From the IMG/VR virus record IMGVR_UViG_2541047840_000001: 46,824 nt of DNA. The stretch is one strand, 5' to 3'. Below the pieces are notes generated by a model. That model had not been told where the DNA came from. It worked only from the letters and a program-made list of their open reading frames with translations, and did not search any database. Source of the stretch: a virus (Duplodnaviria; Heunggongvirae; Uroviricota; Caudoviricetes). The first letter of the stretch is position 1. Every line of letters starts with the position of its first letter. Both the position numbers and the translations under genes were made by a program. Shown in pieces: positions 9,283 to 30,246 of this stretch.

Positions 9283-9816
9283 TCATTCTGGTTGTTCTGG
9301 AAACGTTACTGGCAGGCTGGAGGTGTCTGTGGATTCGACCTTCTGCGCATAGAGCATCCACTCGGTTAATTTTTGTTTATTCTCGTTGGAAATGATACCC
9401 AGCCGTAGCTGTGAGTCCCATAGCTGGGTTTTATCCCTGACGAGCTGTAGCAGGCTTTGCTTTTCATTTTCCGCTTGTTGCCTCTGCTCTTCCTCGGTAT
9501 AAGTTCGCTTTATCACTACGCCATCTTTGAACAACCATTTCCCCGAAATATCAGCCCGGCGATTTGCTGTAATATCAGGTAATTCAACGACGCTTGCGCC
9601 TTCCGGATTAATTGCTGAAACATCCTTTTCAATACAAATAATAACGCCGTTATGGTCATAGACCATTTTCAAAGTGTCTGGCTGGAAATTCTTTTGTTCC
9701 TCATACCAGTTTTTTCCATCATCTGAATAAAGCCATTTGATGTTAAATTGCTTTGTTAGCTGGTATTGCTCTTTTGTTTTAGGGTTGCCAGCAGTAATGT
9801 TTTTTAAGTGCATCAT
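9283..9816 (-). CDS. Alternative tail fibre assembly protein
   Basis: 177 aa paralog of 8727..9254 in inverted orientation. Confidence 0.8.
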   Translation of the reverse strand: MMHLKNITAGNPKTKEQYQLTKQFNIKWLYSDDGKNWYEEQKNFQPDTLKMVYDHNGVIICIEKDVSAINPEGASVVELPDITANRRADISGKWLFKDGVVIKRTYTEEEQRQQAENEKQSLLQLVRDKTQLWDSQLRLGIISNENKQKLTEWMLYAQKVESTDTSSLPVTFPEQPE

Positions 9817-9818
9817 CG

Positions 9819-10707
9819 TTAAATACTCCCCGCGTTATACCACGTCCCATTAATGCAATACTGAATTGGCCTTGCCTGTGTTGTATCAATTAATTTATCA
9901 CGGTTTCCGTTAACTGAACCCGTAACGACATAACCTGACCTGTCAGACCAGCCGGGGCCATTCCATGTCTGAACAGATGACAGACCGCCAAGGCGAATAC
10001 CTGTAATAAACCTTGAGTTACATTCTGCCCGCGTGTATGCACCAACATCTCCCGCAGAGGGTTTGCGGGTCGTGGTGTAAAACTCTGACCAGTCAGCCTC
10101 AAATCCATAACCATCACGCGCTGAACGATAAAAAATACCGCCGTTCTTATAATTCACACGGAACTGTACGGCAGGGCAACTCCCCGCATTCATATTGAAG
10201 TGGAGGATTAATGTCGATGCACCGCTGATATCTGCATCATAAACACCGCTATTCCAGTTCCAGCCAACAGCTTTATCATTTGCAACCCTGCTTCCTGTTT
10301 GCCCTAAAGCAAATGCAGGCTGCTGGTTTTTCGTGTTGTAGTCTCGTCGCCAGCCAGGAGCGTAAGCATCACCATGATTAATATAAGTGAATTGAGCGTT
10401 AGTAATTCCGCCACCGCTGGACGTGCTCGGCGTGGTAACGCGTATGGTCATTGCGCCGCGAGTGCCAATAACTTCCACCACAGCACCTGCAAGACAAATA
10501 TTTCCGCAACCTGTATCTGTAATGACCTTATTATTTGCATAAGCCCATGAGCCTTTGCACATCCAGTAAGGATGGTTAAATGCCCCCTGGCTCTCCAGCC
10601 ACGAAATAAATTGCGCGGTTGTCCAGACCTGACTATCGCCACCAATATTCAGCCATGCGCTATATGCGCGGCAGGCCCCAATATTTTTGGTGAAGGTATC
10701 TTTTCCC
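9819..10707 (-). CDS. Alternative tail fibre variable C-terminal segment (Sv'-like, no own start; expressed after inversion)
   Basis: Minus-strand frame is open from 10780 down to the stop at 9819; translation through the IR reads LGLQETVNQASGALQKNQNGADIP, identical to the fibre gene at the left IR; reading frames match across the crossover. Confidence 0.75.
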
Positions 10708-10780
10708 GGAATATCTGCGCCGTTCTGGTTTTTCTGTAATGCGCCAGAAGCCTGATTTACCGTTTCCTGTAAACCGAGGT
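10708..10780. repeat. 73-bp perfect inverted repeat, right copy (IRR)
   Basis: Exact reverse complement of 7726-7798. Confidence 0.85.
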
Positions 10781-10789
10781 TTTTGCGAA
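10764..10789. other. gix/hix-like recombination site (right crossover site)
   Basis: TTCCTGTAAACC-GA-GGTTTTTGCGAA, strong match to recalled gix/hix sites; central dinucleotide is inverted relative to left site. Confidence 0.65.
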
Positions 10790-10853
10790 TTGCCTCTGTG
10801 TCGTCTGAACGATATTTTTTTCCGCTTTTAGCAACAATCGCGGTTTAGAAAGT

Positions 10854-11408
10854 ATGCAATATGGTTATGCGAGGGTGTCAACTTTTGACCAGAATTTGGA
10901 ATTACAACTGGAGGCGCTCAGGAGTTCAGGATGTGACCAGATTTTTGAAGATAAAATATCCGGTGCTAAATCAAAACGACCAGGACTTGATAAGCTACTT
11001 AAGGTGTTACGGCCGGGCGATACGGTTATTGTCTGGAAGCTGGACCGAATGGGGCGTTCTCTGATTCATCTTGTTGATTTACTTAACCATTTTTTATCAA
11101 ACAACATTGAGTTTATTTCGATTACGGAAGGGATAAAAATTAGCACTTCAATTGGCCGCTTTGCCTACACGATGCTGAGTGCAGTCGCAGAGATGGAGCG
11201 GGAAAATATGATTGAAAGAACGCGTGCAGGATTGGCGGTGGCAAGGGCTAACGGCAGGATAGGAGGACGCCGCTCAAAATTGGCACCAGAGCAATGGGAA
11301 CAGATCGGAAGGCTTATTGCGAATGGTGTTTCACGTAAGCGGATAGCGATTATCTTCGATGTTACCTTATCCACGCTTTACCGCAGGTTTCCGGCTGGGA
11401 ATCATTGA
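10854..11408 (+). CDS. Serine recombinase, DNA invertase (Gin/Hin/Cin/Pin family)
   Basis: 184 aa; N-terminal YARVSTxxQ catalytic-serine motif and C-terminal HTH; sits next to a gix-like site. Confidence 0.9.
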   Translation: MQYGYARVSTFDQNLELQLEALRSSGCDQIFEDKISGAKSKRPGLDKLLKVLRPGDTVIVWKLDRMGRSLIHLVDLLNHFLSNNIEFISITEGIKISTSIGRFAYTMLSAVAEMERENMIERTRAGLAVARANGRIGGRRSKLAPEQWEQIGRLIANGVSRKRIAIIFDVTLSTLYRRFPAGNH

Positions 11409-11591
11409 CTGGAGTTAGGCCAGTAGTATGATGCTCGCAAAACGAGATCCAATTTAGATCCTTTTACTGGTGGATTATCGTTCGATCAGTGAGAGACTTC
11501 GTGCATGACCGAAAGTGTTGTGGTAGAGTTCTCTGAAAACCACGTAACGTGGTTATGATTGTGGGTGTCTGGTTGGAAAATGACCAGATAT

Positions 11592-11710
11592 GGAAACAAA
11601 AAGCCCGCAGATAAATCTGCGGGCTTCTTGCGACATCCACGGAAAACCAACAAAAACAATCCATGGGCGCCTCAACAAATCCCATTATACGTTGGTTTTC
11701 CGTGGACGCA
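11592..11710 (-). ncRNA. Candidate CopA-like antisense RNA in repA leader (prediction)
   Basis: Minus-strand intrinsic terminator (stem 11601-11626 followed by TTTTGTTTCC on minus strand) plus a 15-bp perfect inverted repeat (11637-11651 / 11691-11705) in the leader just upstream of repA ATG. Confidence 0.3.
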
Positions 11711-11721
11711 AGAGCGAACAT

Positions 11722-12570
11722 ATGGATAGACCAATGCCGTCTCTACGTTCAGCTTACGTTTGTAATTTGTCGCCGGAGTTCCAGCCTCCAAAGCACCATA
11801 CGCACAAGCTGCCGCTAGTGTTATCTGATGCTTTACAGCGCATTAATGGTCGTGATCTTACGTGTGAGGTTGCGTTCTACGTTAATCAGCCGTCAGAGCG
11901 GAAGCGCCGGATAAACGAGCATCGTCGTCGGGCGATTAATGCTGTGATTGCTGCGATTTTGCACCATGTAAACATCATTTCTAAGCGGGTTCTGGCCAGT
12001 GCTGAGGCGTTGGCTGATTTTTGCGGCCTGTCTACCGTATCCGAAGCTGGGAACAAGTCTATAACACGCTGTACAAGGGCGTTGTCGCAACTGAAAGCGT
12101 TAGGTTTTATTGATTATGAACGTCGCTGGGATCGGGTGAATAAACAGTATTGGCCAGCGAAAATAGAGATTCGTGATCAACTGCTGGAAACCGTTGGTAT
12201 TACTGAACAAGCATGGAGACGTGCGGTTAGCCAGAAACTTAATTACTTCAATGCGAAGAATAGCGAACGGCTTAAAAAAGCGATAACGGAGGCTGATTAT
12301 AAGCGTATTGTTATTCAGGAGCAGATGGAGAATGTATGGCGTCAGAGGAAGACAGCCAGAGAGATAAAGGCAAAACAGAAAGCAGCGGAGAGAGCTGCGC
12401 GTCTTGTTCAGGAAAAGGGAGAGGCCGAACTTCGTCATCAAATCACTAGAGAGGTTAGCCAGGAATTTGCTGATGGCATGTATCCTGGTGCTGACCTTGC
12501 ATATTTACGATCCCTCGTTGAGCAGCGTTATAACAGGTTAAGAAAGACCTGGAAATCACTCCAACATTAA
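11722..12570 (+). CDS. repA: Plasmid replication initiator RepA (IncFII RepA1-like)
   Basis: Translation contains SITRCTRALSQLKALGFIDYE, resembling IncFII RepA1 as recalled from memory; probable ATG at 11722 (track ORF begins 11590). Confidence 0.8.
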   Translation: MDRPMPSLRSAYVCNLSPEFQPPKHHTHKLPLVLSDALQRINGRDLTCEVAFYVNQPSERKRRINEHRRRAINAVIAAILHHVNIISKRVLASAEALADFCGLSTVSEAGNKSITRCTRALSQLKALGFIDYERRWDRVNKQYWPAKIEIRDQLLETVGITEQAWRRAVSQKLNYFNAKNSERLKKAITEADYKRIVIQEQMENVWRQRKTAREIKAKQKAAERAARLVQEKGEAELRHQITREVSQEFADGMYPGADLAYLRSLVEQRYNRLRKTWKSLQH

Positions 12571-16791: not shown

Positions 16792-17973
16792 TTATGGTCT
16801 GCTTTTCTGTGCCAGCTTATCAGCACATGTTTTTATCAGATCCTGTAGTGTCTTGGCTGGCAGGTTTGCATCCAGTACGCTGAGTATGCTGTTGTGATCA
16901 GCTTGGTCGACTACTTTGCCTGTCGGTGGTAGTAGCTTGAGCTGAGGATTCAGGTTTTCGTCAAAGCTGATAAGTGCTCTGGCGTTTCTGAGCAGATCAA
17001 GAAGTAAGGCTGATATCACATTTTCCTGAGTCATTGCTGGCAGATTTAGCGCCGCTTTGGTTTTCCCTGTTGCCTTGTCAAACTCCTTGATTAGTTCCTT
17101 CCTGTAGTTCGGTTCCGTTAATAGCCGATTATGCTCTGTTGCCGCGCGGATAATCGTTTTTTCTTGGTACAGTCGTTTAGCCAGATCACGCTCGTACTGT
17201 GTTTTTAACACGCTGCTGATAGCGTTAAAGGCTTCAATGTAGGCCAGCTTGATATCTTTCACGCTTGGACCGTCGATGCTCTCCATGAGCAAGGTAAATC
17301 CGTCTTTTGTCATGCGATAGATTGTTATTTCGCGGTCGCTTCCTTCCAACGGTCGTTGCTCTTTAAAAAAATGACGCGCCGCAGCTGTGCGAGGAATGCG
17401 TAACGCATCGATGGCCATAACGATGGAATTGTTTGTGGTGCTGAATGCCTGGGCAACATCGGCTGAGGTTGTGAGTGGCTCGTTATTGCACACCTTAATG
17501 TAAAACATCGGTTTGGCGTTGAGCGTATCGACAACCTCACGAGCATTGCTTGGCGAGACGGTAACGGTCGCGGCCGTTTGTGCGTTCTGGTTGAAATAGC
17601 AGTCTTCCAGCCGTTCGAACACATCCCACGCTTGGTTAGTTTCAAGCATTTTAGCGTGACGTGCAGCCCCGCGTTCTGTCCAGAGGATGAGGGAGCGAAC
17701 TTTCGGGGGAATTTGTAACCCTCTTAAAGATGGTTCGTTAACTACTCTCACAGGAACTCTTAAAGAGTTTTTGTTCTTCAACTCTCGTAACTCTTTACCT
17801 TCTATCCTAAAAAAGTGTTTACCTTCTATAAAACGTTCCTTGTTTCTATTGAAATTGTTTGTCAGACGTTGGCGCTCGGTTCCATACAATTGCGCCAGTA
17901 GTTCAGTAGTGATAACGGGGAGCTGGTTATGCAGGATAGGCTGTAGGGTGTTAACGGTCGGAAGCGTTTTCAT
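16792..17973 (-). CDS. Phage antirepressor-like regulatory protein (ORF6N / Rha-like domains)
   Basis: 393 aa; N-terminal segment ending FIEGKHFF and a central Rha-like segment; calls are from recalled domain patterns. Confidence 0.65.
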   Translation of the reverse strand: MKTLPTVNTLQPILHNQLPVITTELLAQLYGTERQRLTNNFNRNKERFIEGKHFFRIEGKELRELKNKNSLRVPVRVVNEPSLRGLQIPPKVRSLILWTERGAARHAKMLETNQAWDVFERLEDCYFNQNAQTAATVTVSPSNAREVVDTLNAKPMFYIKVCNNEPLTTSADVAQAFSTTNNSIVMAIDALRIPRTAAARHFFKEQRPLEGSDREITIYRMTKDGFTLLMESIDGPSVKDIKLAYIEAFNAISSVLKTQYERDLAKRLYQEKTIIRAATEHNRLLTEPNYRKELIKEFDKATGKTKAALNLPAMTQENVISALLLDLLRNARALISFDENLNPQLKLLPPTGKVVDQADHNSILSVLDANLPAKTLQDLIKTCADKLAQKSRP

Positions 17974-18161
17974 TTTGCACCTCCCATAACTACTTTGGTT
18001 ACGAGGGAGATTTTTGCGTCAGAAACAGCGTTATCGTTGCTGGCGATGCGCATAGCTTCGCGCTCGATGATTTCAGCCAGGCGGAGTTTATCGGCGTATG
18101 AGGCTTTCTTGAGAAGGATCTTTACGAGGTTGACGTAATAGTCATGGGGTAAGTTTGTCAT
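17970..18161 (-). CDS. Small protein overlapping antirepressor start (icd-like position)
   Basis: 63 aa ORF whose stop overlaps the antirepressor start codon. Confidence 0.4.
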   Translation of the reverse strand: MTNLPHDYYVNLVKILLKKASYADKLRLAEIIEREAMRIASNDNAVSDAKISLVTKVVMGGAK

Positions 18162-18917
18162 GGTGATAGTTCCCTTAAAGGTTAAGGATACTCACCACCG
18201 TCTGGTTCCAATCATTGGGTGGTGAGACGTACAGGGTTGGAACTACCGGTCACCATGGAATCCGGCGAGTCTTACGACTCCCCCGCACGCCCCACCATAA
18301 TTTGGGTGTAGCAGTGCTTTACGCATAAAAAAACCGCTAACGCGGTATGCGCCATGATGATTATCGGGGTTCCAATCCCGGTCGTAGATTTTGCTACGGC
18401 TCGGAAAGTGTCCACCAATGGCGCATTCATGTCAATACGGCGGGATTTTAACAGAGACAACCACATAGCGTGGGTTTATTGGTAGGCAGAAACAAAAAAA
18501 CCGCCCTATTGAGGACGGTTCTTTCGTGCTGATCGGATTCGCGGTCCTTTCAGCATTACGTTGTTGTATAAACAACCACGCAAGCACAAGCAGCAAGTTA
18601 ATTTTACCCAAAAGGTAATAATAGTCCACTATTATGCTTCATAAAATTGTGGTTCTTGTTGTGCCTGCAAACTCACAGATTGTGGGTAGGTTACTGATTT
18701 TGTGAAAATAAACTGGTTTTTTCGTTTAATTTATTTCCTATTACTAATCTTAAAATAATCGTAAAATACCTGTGGACCTTCCCGCCGATTCGCACCCGGG
18801 CACCGACTTTAGGGGAGGATTTCCTGTTGCCGTACATGCAAGCACAAGCAGCCGTGCTTGCTCTCGCGTTGTTTTCGTCGGTGGGGATGCCGTGAAACGG
18901 CCTGTAAGGGCCATACA

Positions 18918-19040
18918 ATGAAAAAATACTGTATGTGTATTTTTATCGTTGTTACTGGGGCTTTGTTTACGCCACATGGGGAGGGTTGGAAGATTACTGA
19001 TAACGCTCTGAATGTGACGATAAACATTAGCAGCAAGTAG
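18918..19040 (+). CDS. Candidate small hydrophobic peptide (40 aa)
   Basis: ATG 18918 with AAGG RBS inside a short hairpin; translation MKKYCMCIFIVVTGALFTPHGEGWKITDNALNVTINISSK; strong terminator immediately downstream. Confidence 0.3.
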   Translation: MKKYCMCIFIVVTGALFTPHGEGWKITDNALNVTINISSK

Positions 19041-19045
19041 CGATT

Positions 19046-19068
19046 AGGCCCCTTCGGGGGCCTTTTTT
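19046..19068 (+). terminator. Rho-independent terminator
   Basis: AGGCCCC-TTCG-GGGGCCT followed by TTTTTT. Confidence 0.65.
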
Positions 19069-20236: not shown

Positions 20237-20257
20237 TTGTCGAGACTCCATGTGTTT

Positions 20258-20290
20258 GATTATATAATTCTATAAATCTATATTTATAGA
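20258..20290. repeat. AT-rich dispersed motif copy upstream of parA
   Basis: GATTATATAATTCTATAAATCTATATTTATAGA. Confidence 0.6.
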
Positions 20291-20330
20291 ACGAGGTAAG
20301 CATAACCAACTTTTTGGCGGATGAAAAGCG

Positions 20331-20365
20331 TTTTATATAATTATATAAATCTATAATCATATAAG
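20331..20365. repeat. AT-rich dispersed motif copy upstream of parA
   Basis: TTTTATATAATTATATAAATCTATAATCATATAAG, followed by hairpin GCGGGC-GTTA-GCCCGC (20365-20380). Confidence 0.6.
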
Positions 20366-20386
20366 CGGGCGTTAGCCCGCTTGCAG

Positions 20387-20761
20387 TCAGAGGTCAGCTA
20401 TCGTTGATATCAGTTGATTTGCTAGCTGTCGCTGTTTACGTGAGAGGGTTAGAGCAGCTTCTGAGCGGTCGCTAAGAGGGGTGTTTTCATCGAGAATCAT
20501 GAGGCATACAGAAATAATAGCTCTGTTATATGCCATCAATGGCTGGCACAGCTTCGATACCGCTGGCACATCGTATTGTAAGGCCGTTTTGAGGCAGATT
20601 TTTTGTTCTGATGCCAGATGAAGGATAGATTCTATCCAGTCGATATCTTTCTCATTATCAATGATTTGGCATAACATACACTCAATCGCTATGTTCAACG
20701 CTTGGATTTCGATTCCAGCAGTGATCAGAGTTTCGTTTTTATTGGCTGTATGTAATTCCAT
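20387..20761 (-). CDS. Hypothetical protein encoded immediately downstream of the repressor gene
   Basis: 124 aa ORF; operator-like palindrome at 20797-20811 between it and the repressor gene. Confidence 0.5.
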   Translation of the reverse strand: MELHTANKNETLITAGIEIQALNIAIECMLCQIIDNEKDIDWIESILHLASEQKICLKTALQYDVPAVSKLCQPLMAYNRAIISVCLMILDENTPLSDRSEAALTLSRKQRQLANQLISTIADL

Positions 20762-20796
20762 GCGTAGCCTCTTTTATACTTTCACATGTTGTCAAA

Positions 20797-20811
20797 ACCA
20801 CAAAGCGTGGT
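20797..20811. promoter_or_regulatory. ACCAC-N5-GTGGT palindrome (repressor operator-like; also a terminator-like hairpin with T7 on plus strand)
   Basis: ACCACAAAGCGTGGT followed by TTTTTTT; same half-site consensus as palindromes in the cI-cro intergenic region. Confidence 0.45.
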
Positions 20812-20853
20812 TTTTTTGAGCGTAGAAATGCACGGCTTTCGCCGTGCTGTGTA

Positions 20854-21510
20854 TCATAACCAGTTGACAACACTAACTACGCGGCCCAGAACTTTATAAC
20901 GCTTAAATTCCTCGTTATTCAGATGCTTAGTGTTCATTTCAGCATCCCTTTCGGTTGACAGCATAACAGCATTGTCACCCGGTATGACTCTACAGTGCCT
21001 CAAAACAACCAGGCCATTTCTGTCTTCAAGGGCATAGATCCCCTCATGAATCTCTGTATCGTCTGTATCAATCAGGACTTGGGAGCCAGGGGATATTGTT
21101 GGTGACATTAACTCATCGTTGCTCTGGAGAACTGACAGAGACGATGGGTTGATGTTCTTGCTTCGTAGAATCTCCTGTTCTATCGCCAGCACTGGCTTTT
21201 CTCCGGCGTGCGATGCTATGTCATTTTTTATAGCTACAAGCCCAGGAATAACAGGAGCGTTAGTATTCTGGGGTGGGAACGGGTTATCTGTTAAGCACGC
21301 GATATAAGGCGCTGATGCTTTCAGGGCGTGCGCGATTTTCTTGATGGCAGGTATAGATGGTTGTCTTAATCCGGCCTCATAGTTCTGCAAGGTGCTTAAG
21401 CCTATTCCAGTGACTTGCTGGAGATCTCCGGCAGTCATGCCGGATTGTTTCCGTAGAGTCTGAATGCGCAGACCTATTTCTTTCTTGATGTTCTCGTCGT
21501 TGCTTTTCAT
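20854..21510 (-). CDS. CI-like prophage repressor (N-terminal HTH, C-terminal S24/LexA-like peptidase)
   Basis: 218 aa; N-terminal HTH-like segment; C-terminal half consistent with an S24 autoproteolytic domain; divergent from a Cro-like gene. Confidence 0.8.
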   Translation of the reverse strand: MKSNDENIKKEIGLRIQTLRKQSGMTAGDLQQVTGIGLSTLQNYEAGLRQPSIPAIKKIAHALKASAPYIACLTDNPFPPQNTNAPVIPGLVAIKNDIASHAGEKPVLAIEQEILRSKNINPSSLSVLQSNDELMSPTISPGSQVLIDTDDTEIHEGIYALEDRNGLVVLRHCRVIPGDNAVMLSTERDAEMNTKHLNNEEFKRYKVLGRVVSVVNWL

Positions 21511-21547: not shown

Positions 21548-21562
21548 ACCACATTTAGTGGT
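21548..21562. promoter_or_regulatory. Operator-like palindrome ACCAC-ATTTA-GTGGT
   Basis: Perfect 5-bp arms, in divergent promoter region between repressor and cro-like genes. Confidence 0.5.
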
Positions 21563-21684: not shown

Positions 21685-22179
21685 ATGACCTTTCAGGAGT
21701 GGGTTGACGAAAATGGAGGCCAAATTGGTGTTGCCAGAAAGTTTGGCTTTACGTCATCACTGATTGGTGCCTGGTATCGCTTCGAGAGATTCCCTCGTGC
21801 GGATAACCTGACGCTGCTGGTGGCGTATTCGGAAGGCCGGATTAACGTCCAGCAATGGGCGGCAGATTTTGCCGAACGTCAGCGCCAGCGTAGCGATGGC
21901 ACATCGGTTCGGCAGAACAAGATCAAAGGGAATCTCCCTGTTAACTGCTTATCAAGGCTGAAAGCGGTTTTCTCTGAGTTGGGGATGCCTGCGGAGCGTT
22001 GCAATCTACGCGGTCCGCGATTCATTGCTCGCTGGAAACACTCACACGTAACCGTTTCAGAGGTTCGTGATGCGATTACCGTGCTGGAGCTTAAGAATAA
22101 AGATTCCAGCGATATCGAGCTGATTCATAAGGAGATTAGCAACGCCCGGCGTTCAGCACTTGGGAGGCTTGAGGAATGA
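21685..22179 (+). CDS. Early regulator, Cro/YdaS-like N-terminal HTH with C-terminal extension (tentative)
   Basis: 164 aa, first gene transcribed divergently from repressor; CTGGAG RBS. Confidence 0.5.
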   Translation: MTFQEWVDENGGQIGVARKFGFTSSLIGAWYRFERFPRADNLTLLVAYSEGRINVQQWAADFAERQRQRSDGTSVRQNKIKGNLPVNCLSRLKAVFSELGMPAERCNLRGPRFIARWKHSHVTVSEVRDAITVLELKNKDSSDIELIHKEISNARRSALGRLEE

Positions 22180-30170: not shown

Positions 30171-30246
30171 GGCCCCTTAGCTCAGTGGTTAGAGCAGGCG
30201 ACTCATAATCGCACGGTCATCGGTTCAAATCCGGTAGGGGCCACCA
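30171..30246 (+). tRNA. tRNA with CAU anticodon (closest to tRNA-Ile2 type; tRNA-Met not excluded)
   Basis: 7-bp acceptor stem GGCCCCT/AGGGGCC, anticodon loop CTCATAA, T-loop GGTTCAAATCC, 3' CCA encoded; 5' half matches E. coli ileX as recalled from memory. Confidence 0.8.

Follow-up and report, generated by a model that had tools for sequence, protein, structure and literature searches.

A possible repressor-gated switch or early gene behind a predicted CI operator in the immunity module of an Escherichia coli phage-plasmid

In lambdoid phages, rexAB and other exclusion genes classically come right after cI, on its strand. Long-range cooperativity of CI-type repressors is established for the lambda OL-OR pair and for the flanking sites of phage 186. 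In the ant/sar pair of P22 immI, a promoter on the opposite strand near the 5' end of the gene supplements repressor control with a short RNA directed against the ribosome-binding site. Type Ib partition systems are complete with ParA and a small centromere-binding protein. In phage P1, the small protein Coi, which is repressor-controlled and encoded next to c1, inactivates C1 at a 1:1 ratio, and the repressor acts on several separate units through solitary operators (PMC8546580).

We analysed one window of 46,824 nucleotides (the whole stretch of DNA under study, IMG/VR record IMGVR_UViG_2541047840_000001), which belongs to a ~48-kb element of a myovirus-type phage-plasmid lineage of E. coli. 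By protein, the element is represented in 61 PLSDB records of non-mobilisable plasmids in Escherichia. It is carried by 71 of 5426 complete E. coli genomes (~1.3%), among them the quality-control strain ATCC 25922, whose copy is plasmid NZ_CP009073.1, and 72 of the 73 places in which it occurs are on plasmids. Three phages isolated on Yersinia pestis EV76 match it at 98-99% identity. Myovirus structural genes are present, and the element encodes ParA with an 82-aa, ParG-like partner, an initiator of the IncFII-RepA family and a lambda-style divergent cI/cro pair. By the plasmid records, the phage isolates and these genes, the element is therefore a phage-plasmid. The gene order cI-orf124-parA-parG is invariant in every member of the lineage, and the order of the cro-side operon, cI, orf124, parA and the 82-aa gene is the same in every recovered contig, down to 27% identity. 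A literature search returned nothing on this element or on orf124, the 124-codon gene that is our subject, and the lysis-lysogeny and plasmid-maintenance circuitry of the element is so far undescribed. Elsewhere in the window (9283-11408), a 184-aa serine invertase of the Hin/Gin/Cin type adjoins oppositely oriented tail-fibre and tail-fibre-assembly genes, which suggests a host-range inversion switch, and a tRNA-Met (CAT) at 30171-30246 (+), among the late genes, shares 87-90% identity with many unrelated enterobacterial phages. The features at and around orf124 are as follows.

20854-21510, minus strand: CI-like repressor gene, with an HTH_3 N-terminal domain and a weak S24-like C-terminal domain
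20830-20847, minus strand: cI intrinsic terminator hairpin, GCACGGC-TTTC-GCCGTGC, with a 7-bp G+C stem
20811-20817, plus strand: T7 run after the palindrome, antisense to orf124 (T4-5 in relatives)
20794-20814, no strand assigned: predicted CI operator, core ACCAC-N5-GTGGT at 20797-20811, centre 43 nt upstream of the orf124 ATG
20790-20795, minus strand: TTGACA hexamer adjoining the operator, with no usable -10 and not conserved
20768-20772, minus strand: Shine-Dalgarno sequence AGAGG, 6 nt before the orf124 ATG, kept in relatives
20387-20761, minus strand: orf124, 124 aa, ATG start
20599-20604, minus strand: A6 run in codons 53-55 of orf124, the starting point of natural frameshifted alleles
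20366-20381, minus strand: terminator-like hairpin GCGGGC-loop-GCCCGC directly after the orf124 stop, followed by the T/A-rich par iterons

The gene that the first-pass annotation had placed on the repressor strand right after cI is real, conserved and under purifying selection. Its dN/dS is 0.26-0.34, as against 0.09-0.12 for cI, 0.04-0.07 for cro and 0.01-0.02 for parA, a constraint several-fold more relaxed than that on any of these three neighbours. We considered whether the step in conservation between orf124 and parA marks a recombination boundary and rejected this, as dS of parA is saturated and what differs between the two genes is constraint. Homologues of orf124 are confined to the lineage: they form 12 clusters among 5.8 billion proteins, an exhaustive HMM search of 1.84 billion representatives recovered only seven proteins, all from the same lineage, and a scan of genome contigs found no relatives. 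The orf124 protein diverges to much the same extent as the CI C-terminal domain does (r = 0.78, a loose relation and similar to that with cro), and the CI DNA-binding domain stays ~80% identical while both of these diverge. Within the lineage, 58 plasmids carry parAG and 58 carry an orf124 allele of at least 95% identity; orf124 is therefore an invariant core gene and not swappable cargo. Three database alleles, P0008, P0009 and P0011, carry frameshifts that start at the A6 homopolymer and go in both directions. These represent either recurrent loss of function or sequencing artefacts. They occur on full-size plasmid contigs, that of P0009 being 49.6 kb, and orf124 is therefore dispensable for plasmid carriage unless the frameshifts are sequencing errors.

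The first-pass annotation had proposed profile and structure searches of the 124-aa protein, and these yielded a confident fold and no match that would assign a function. AlphaFold2, run on an alignment of eight family sequences, predicts an up-down four-helix bundle (pLDDT 91.7, pTM 0.85). The protein is acidic (pI 4.8, range 4.5-4.8; 16 Asp/Glu vs 10 Lys/Arg) and contains five cysteines in the window and two to five across relatives. Its maximum 19-residue hydropathy is 1.5, with charged residues included, and there is no membrane segment. In PHROGs it matches only phrog_7632, its own family of unknown function; a Pfam search gave no hits, an NCBIfam search nothing relevant, and neither the PDB sequence profiles nor the viral-structure library gave a match. 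The sole PADLOC match, to NucC at E 0.036 in one of 11 members, is not meaningful. The orf124 family is thus new but narrow. As modelled, its product would be a small helical binder, soluble and without a catalytic signature, and fold and sequence say no more than this.

Hairpins delimit orf124 on both sides. The one at 20830-20847, between cI and orf124, is present as first described and is the cI terminator: its stem covaries among the 11 relatives (GCACGGC/GCCGTGC becoming GCGCGGC/GCTGCGC, plus wobble pairs) while the loop is free, it folds at -11 to -17 kcal/mol, and it is called as a terminator in the Citrobacter relative L003 and in L007. A run of T6-7 follows it in all relatives, the window lineage alone having a degenerate one (ATTTCT), and because of this the terminator scan of the window did not call the hairpin. 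The poor U-tract also means that read-through from cI could express orf124 in lysogens of the window lineage. At 20366-20381, the stem is conserved in relatives and the loop is variable. In L003, the only two terminator calls on the sense strand are the two hairpins that flank orf124. With a terminator on each side, orf124 is therefore an insulated single-gene unit. Beyond it, at 20252-20364, two iteron arrays of the type TTATATAATT(C/A)TATAAATCTATA (TATATAATT-type) flank the par promoter region upstream of parA; these iterons are conserved in relatives and are likely the centromere or operator of a type Ib-like partition system.

Between the cI terminator and orf124 lies the palindrome ACCAC-AAAGC-GTGGT (20797-20811), which had been noted to match those of the cI-cro spacer. 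This observation is confirmed: the same motif is found there at 21548 and 21651, and the window holds four exact copies of ACCAC-N5-GTGGT (11539, 20797, 21548 and 21651) as against 0.01 expected from shuffled sequences. The site at 20794-20814 is the only one with perfectly symmetric 8-bp arms (AAAACCAC/GTGGTTTT), and it shares A-rich flanks with the other operators. In each of the 11 loci it is found shortly past the cI gene, and its distance from that gene is conserved. Its arms are invariant in the 11 relatives and its 5-nt spacer is variable, differing even between plasmids that are 98% identical. The most distant relative, L021 (27% protein identity), keeps the palindrome and has an extra half-site, without a T-run. 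The orf124-side operator is the best-scoring one in eight of 10 loci, a ranking that is partly circular, as the site contributes to the matrix. We conclude from this pattern of variation that the palindrome is a genuine site of the CI operator type, one that appears to evolve as a protein-binding site. The remaining operators of the window are the following.

21548-21562, no strand assigned: operator O3, centre 45 nt upstream of the cI ATG, 4 nt before TATAAA
21630-21665, no strand assigned: operators O2 (degenerate) and O1 (exact, at the transcript start)
11539-11553, no strand assigned: solitary exact operator, centre 44 nt upstream of the IncFII-RepA-family gene, TATGAT directly after
18460-18474, no strand assigned: one-mismatch operator between a T7 terminator and the isrK/c4-like RNA and antirepressor operon

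The distance from operator centre to ATG is nearly constant, at 43 nt for orf124, 45 nt for cI (O3) and 44 nt for the repA-family gene. At cI and repA, a -10-like hexamer (TATAAA and TATGAT, respectively) comes 0-4 nt after the operator, which places the operator in the promoter spacer, where a bound repressor would repress. The same repression logic is seen at the cro-side promoter, TTGAAA-17-TTTAAT, with O2 inside the 17-nt spacer and O1 at the start. The first gene on the cro side (21685-22179, +) encodes 164 aa with a weak N-terminal match to Cro/repressor-like proteins (phrog_35, residues 1-53) plus an additional C-terminal part that is conserved, and is unusually long for a Cro. The RepA-family gene (11590-12570, +) is identified as a replication initiator by Pfam at E 1e-43, and CI appears to gate it; derepression of repA upon induction could drive a copy-number run-up. 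At the fourth location, Rfam finds c4 antisense RNA (84 bits) and isrK (65 bits) at 18215-18474 (-), together with a sub-threshold match to the a1b1 target (30.3 bits; gathering score 46.7). Downstream of these RNAs (16792-18161, -) are a 63-aa gene, whose counterpart in a related plasmid is annotated as ash family, and a gene for a 393-aa ORF6N/Rha protein, so that the region makes up a P1 immI-like antirepressor module within a phage that has a lambda-type CI. The variable region between this module and the par genes contains a full-length match to ryfA RNA (18772-19068, +; 143 bits vs a gathering score of 80), and related plasmids hold other genes there, an HTH regulator and NinX. Judged by its operators, CI would thus control several separate units through solitary sites, a layout known from P1.

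The CI C-terminal domain matches the S24 family weakly (Pfam E 5.7e-4, below the cut-off), the serine of the SM motif, located by eye only, reads leucine (DELMSPTI), and BLASTP of CI against LexA gave no usable alignment. The domain is probably non-catalytic and the repressor probably non-autocleaving. Apparently lacking a functional S24 site, CI would therefore have to be inactivated by protein partners, and a repressor of this kind would fit antirepressor-driven induction. No LexA box was found near orf124.

The TTGACA hexamer had been thought to overlap the palindrome; it runs from 20795 to 20790 on the minus strand and is adjacent to it, with a 1-nt gap. The only -10-like hexamer nearby, TATAAA, is 11 nt away and thus too close, and the pair is specific to the lineage: relatives read TTAACG, TTGACG or TTAGTG at the position of TTGACA, and neither hexamer is conserved. 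A weight-matrix search for a sigma-70 sense promoter across seven relatives found nothing positionally conserved in the 60-nt gap, and no convincing candidate from the operator to the Shine-Dalgarno sequence. We also considered a leaderless start activated by CI, modelled on the lambda maintenance promoter, and rejected it, as the position that such a start requires has no -10 and relatives keep the Shine-Dalgarno sequence. Since the operator stands in the same geometry to orf124 as to cI and repA, CI would be expected to occlude a promoter in the 60-nt gap, and the geometry points to repression of orf124 rather than activation.

A second layer of control may originate from within the gene, where two features coincide.

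20666-20695, plus strand: putative antisense promoter, TTGGCA-18 nt-TATGTT, at codons 31-32 and 23-24 of orf124
20627-20695, no strand assigned: block of frozen synonymous sites, codons 23-45 of orf124

The promoter was flagged by the scan in the window and independently in Citrobacter L003, where it has a TG extension, and TGnTATGTT is found in most relatives. Within the block, codons are retained among relatives at AAC (9/9), the rare ATA (8/9), TGT (9/10), CAA (9/9), ATT (10/10), GAT (9/9) and AAT (7/7), and those at ATA, AAC and CAA preserve the two promoter hexamers. From codon 46 to codon 124 synonymous sites are free to vary, and codons 23-45 have a higher share of frozen sites than the remainder of orf124 (Fisher p = 2.5e-4). 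An overlapping plus-strand ORF (20661-20819) was rejected as the cause of the frozen codons, its ATG being absent in relatives. The predicted transcript would run from ~20702 to ~20817, ~115 nt, and a consensus structure search of this putative RNA found a terminal hairpin only, with no conserved internal structure or covariation. From these features, we regard a cis-antisense RNA from inside orf124 as probable. Another DNA-level element could also explain the frozen sites, because these extend upstream of the antisense -35 and fit an IHF-core match, TATCAATGATTTG at 20656-20668 (+), which lies in the block, overlaps the antisense -35 and shows synonymous conservation in 10 of 11 relatives; the IHF-core motif occurs four times in the window against 3.35 expected, a count not above chance.

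From these observations, we hypothesize that orf124 is a CI-repressed, antisense-buffered, insulated unit of the immunity module of the phage-plasmid, a switch or early gene whose product binds another protein; we put this forward tentatively, with confidence a little short of even. CI bound at 20797-20811 would occlude a promoter in the 60-nt gap, keeping orf124 off or very low in lysogens, and the gene would be released on infection or upon inactivation of CI. The opposite-strand promoter inside the ORF would give a cis-antisense RNA of ~115 nt that covers the ribosome-binding site and the first ~20 codons and ends at the palindrome and its T-run, so that a single stretch of DNA may double as an operator at the DNA level and as the antisense terminator at the RNA level. 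Three layers thus point toward orf124 being off, namely the terminator against cI read-through, the consensus CI operator and the probable antisense RNA; the pattern is that of switch-critical or harmful phage genes (P22 ant/sar, P1 ant/c4, P1 coi), not that of rexAB. The most speculative part concerns the product, which, as a small acidic four-helix bundle with no catalytic motif, may act by binding another protein. Our preferred target is the switch itself, orf124 being a Coi-like inactivator of the CI C-terminal domain that would lock the lytic decision; that it binds CI is purely an inference. An early anti-host or anti-defence role comes a close second and is about as compatible with the fast evolution of the gene as a Coi-like lock.

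Other readings of the palindrome and of the gene were weighed against this one. That the palindrome is solely a rho-independent bidirectional terminator, its likeness to an operator being coincidental, would agree with the A and T runs on its flanks, with a fold of -8.9 kcal/mol when these are included, and with the T7 run on the plus strand, where the whole forms a terminator-like structure for antisense transcription. The hairpin is weak, its A and T flanks being able to pair together, and is followed by only T4 on the strand of orf124, and the terminator scan of the window did not call it. An exact operator match is expected by chance at only ~0.01 per window, and the arms are constant, with no compensatory substitutions of the kind seen in the covarying cI terminator next to them. 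Because the palindrome behaves as a protein-binding site, with invariant arms, a free spacer and no T-run at all in L021, we reject the plain terminator that had originally been offered as an alternative, and we consider it highly improbable that termination is the sole function. Rather unlikely, though worth keeping in view and compatible with the switch or early gene proposed above, is that the operator serves mainly as an OL-like or flanking distal site, looping to O1-O3 ~750-850 bp away so as to tighten cro-side repression and autoregulate cI, with control of orf124 incidental. It is the most symmetric operator in most relatives, its distance beyond cI is conserved in all 11 loci, and the lambda OL-OR and 186 flanking sites are precedents; however, the other solitary operators, at repA and the c4 operon, each lie immediately upstream of a transcription unit, with the same spacing to the start, which argues for local promoter control.

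As for the gene, the proposal of the first-pass annotation was a rexAB-like exclusion or defence gene expressed in lysogens, which would owe its transcription to cI read-through or to a promoter activated by CI, and would guard the host against other phages. This proposal was built on where orf124 lies, right after cI and on its strand, and three further observations are in keeping with it: the U-tract of the cI terminator is degenerate in the window (AUUUCU), the gene evolves fast relative to its neighbours (dN/dS ~0.3), as arms-race genes do, and natural frameshift alleles suggest that it is dispensable for plasmid carriage. In relatives, however, a canonical T6-7 terminator separates cI from orf124, the operator has the geometry of repressed promoters and there is no -10 for a CI-activated leaderless start, and the antisense promoter inside the ORF is conserved. 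Moreover, Pfam and NCBIfam are empty and the PADLOC similarity to NucC (E 0.036) is confined to one member, the product is a single soluble protein with no membrane segment and no partner gene, and the equal counts of plasmids with parAG and with the orf124 allele mark an invariant core gene. The proposal is thereby weakened, and we now think it unlikely. A plasmid-maintenance accessory, for instance an adaptor for partition or copy number that cooperates with ParA, the ParG-like protein or RepA, might be expected from the constant placement of orf124 directly upstream of the par iterons and parA, and from the CI operator at repA, through which immunity and plasmid functions are wired together. 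Yet a terminator stands between orf124 and parA, par has its own iteron-flanked promoter region, type Ib systems are already complete without such a factor, constraint on orf124 is 10-20 times weaker than on parA, and frameshifted alleles sit on full-size plasmid contigs such as that of P0009; we judge this role quite improbable.

The CI-repressed switch or early gene remains the reading we prefer. The locus is a compact, testable case of a lambda-type repressor wired in the P1 style, in which CI would control the switch or early gene, the plasmid replication initiator and an antirepressor operon under antisense control, all at the same time. Should orf124 be an antirepressor or an anti-defence protein, a new protein family would be in hand; should it prove dispensable, the operator still defines the CI regulon. 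The boldest form of the hypothesis, that orf124 founds a new family, specific to this lineage, of repressor-gated four-helix-bundle antirepressor or commitment (or early anti-defence) proteins, gated by a single stretch of DNA that is at once the strongest CI operator and the terminator of the antisense RNA from within the gene, is a speculation that we consider unlikely to hold in full.

Compared with known systems, the regulatory architecture is of an ordinary kind; what is unusual is the proposed dual use of one site. In the lambda cI-rexA-rexB arrangement, rexA, like orf124, is the next gene after that of the repressor and shares its strand; unlike rexAB, orf124 is separated from cI by a terminator and an operator, encodes one soluble protein in place of a sensor and membrane-protein pair, has no homology to RexA or RexB, and is a core rather than an accessory gene. 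With the lambda OL-OR and 186 flanking sites, too, a high-quality site is located past the repressor gene, several hundred bp away from the main cluster, but here there is a single predicted site and it is promoter-proximal to another gene. P22 ant/sar resembles orf124 in having an antisense RNA complementary to the ribosome-binding site in addition to repressor control, with the differences that the orf124 antisense RNA is a prediction, that its promoter lies inside the coding sequence and that its terminator would coincide with the repressor operator. There is also a likeness in layout to P1 immC (coi-c1, Op99; c4/Ant). Both elements are phage-plasmids, both have solitary repressor operators scattered over the genome, one of them at a replication gene, and both combine a c4-type antisense RNA and antirepressor operon in the same element with a gene for a small, non-enzymatic protein; like coi, orf124 adjoins the repressor gene and lies behind a repressor operator. 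In contrast to P1, orf124 lies downstream of cI and not upstream, as a separate unit bounded by terminators, and where P1 uses C1 with asymmetric 17-mers, this element has a lambda-type HTH/S24-like CI whose operators are palindromic.
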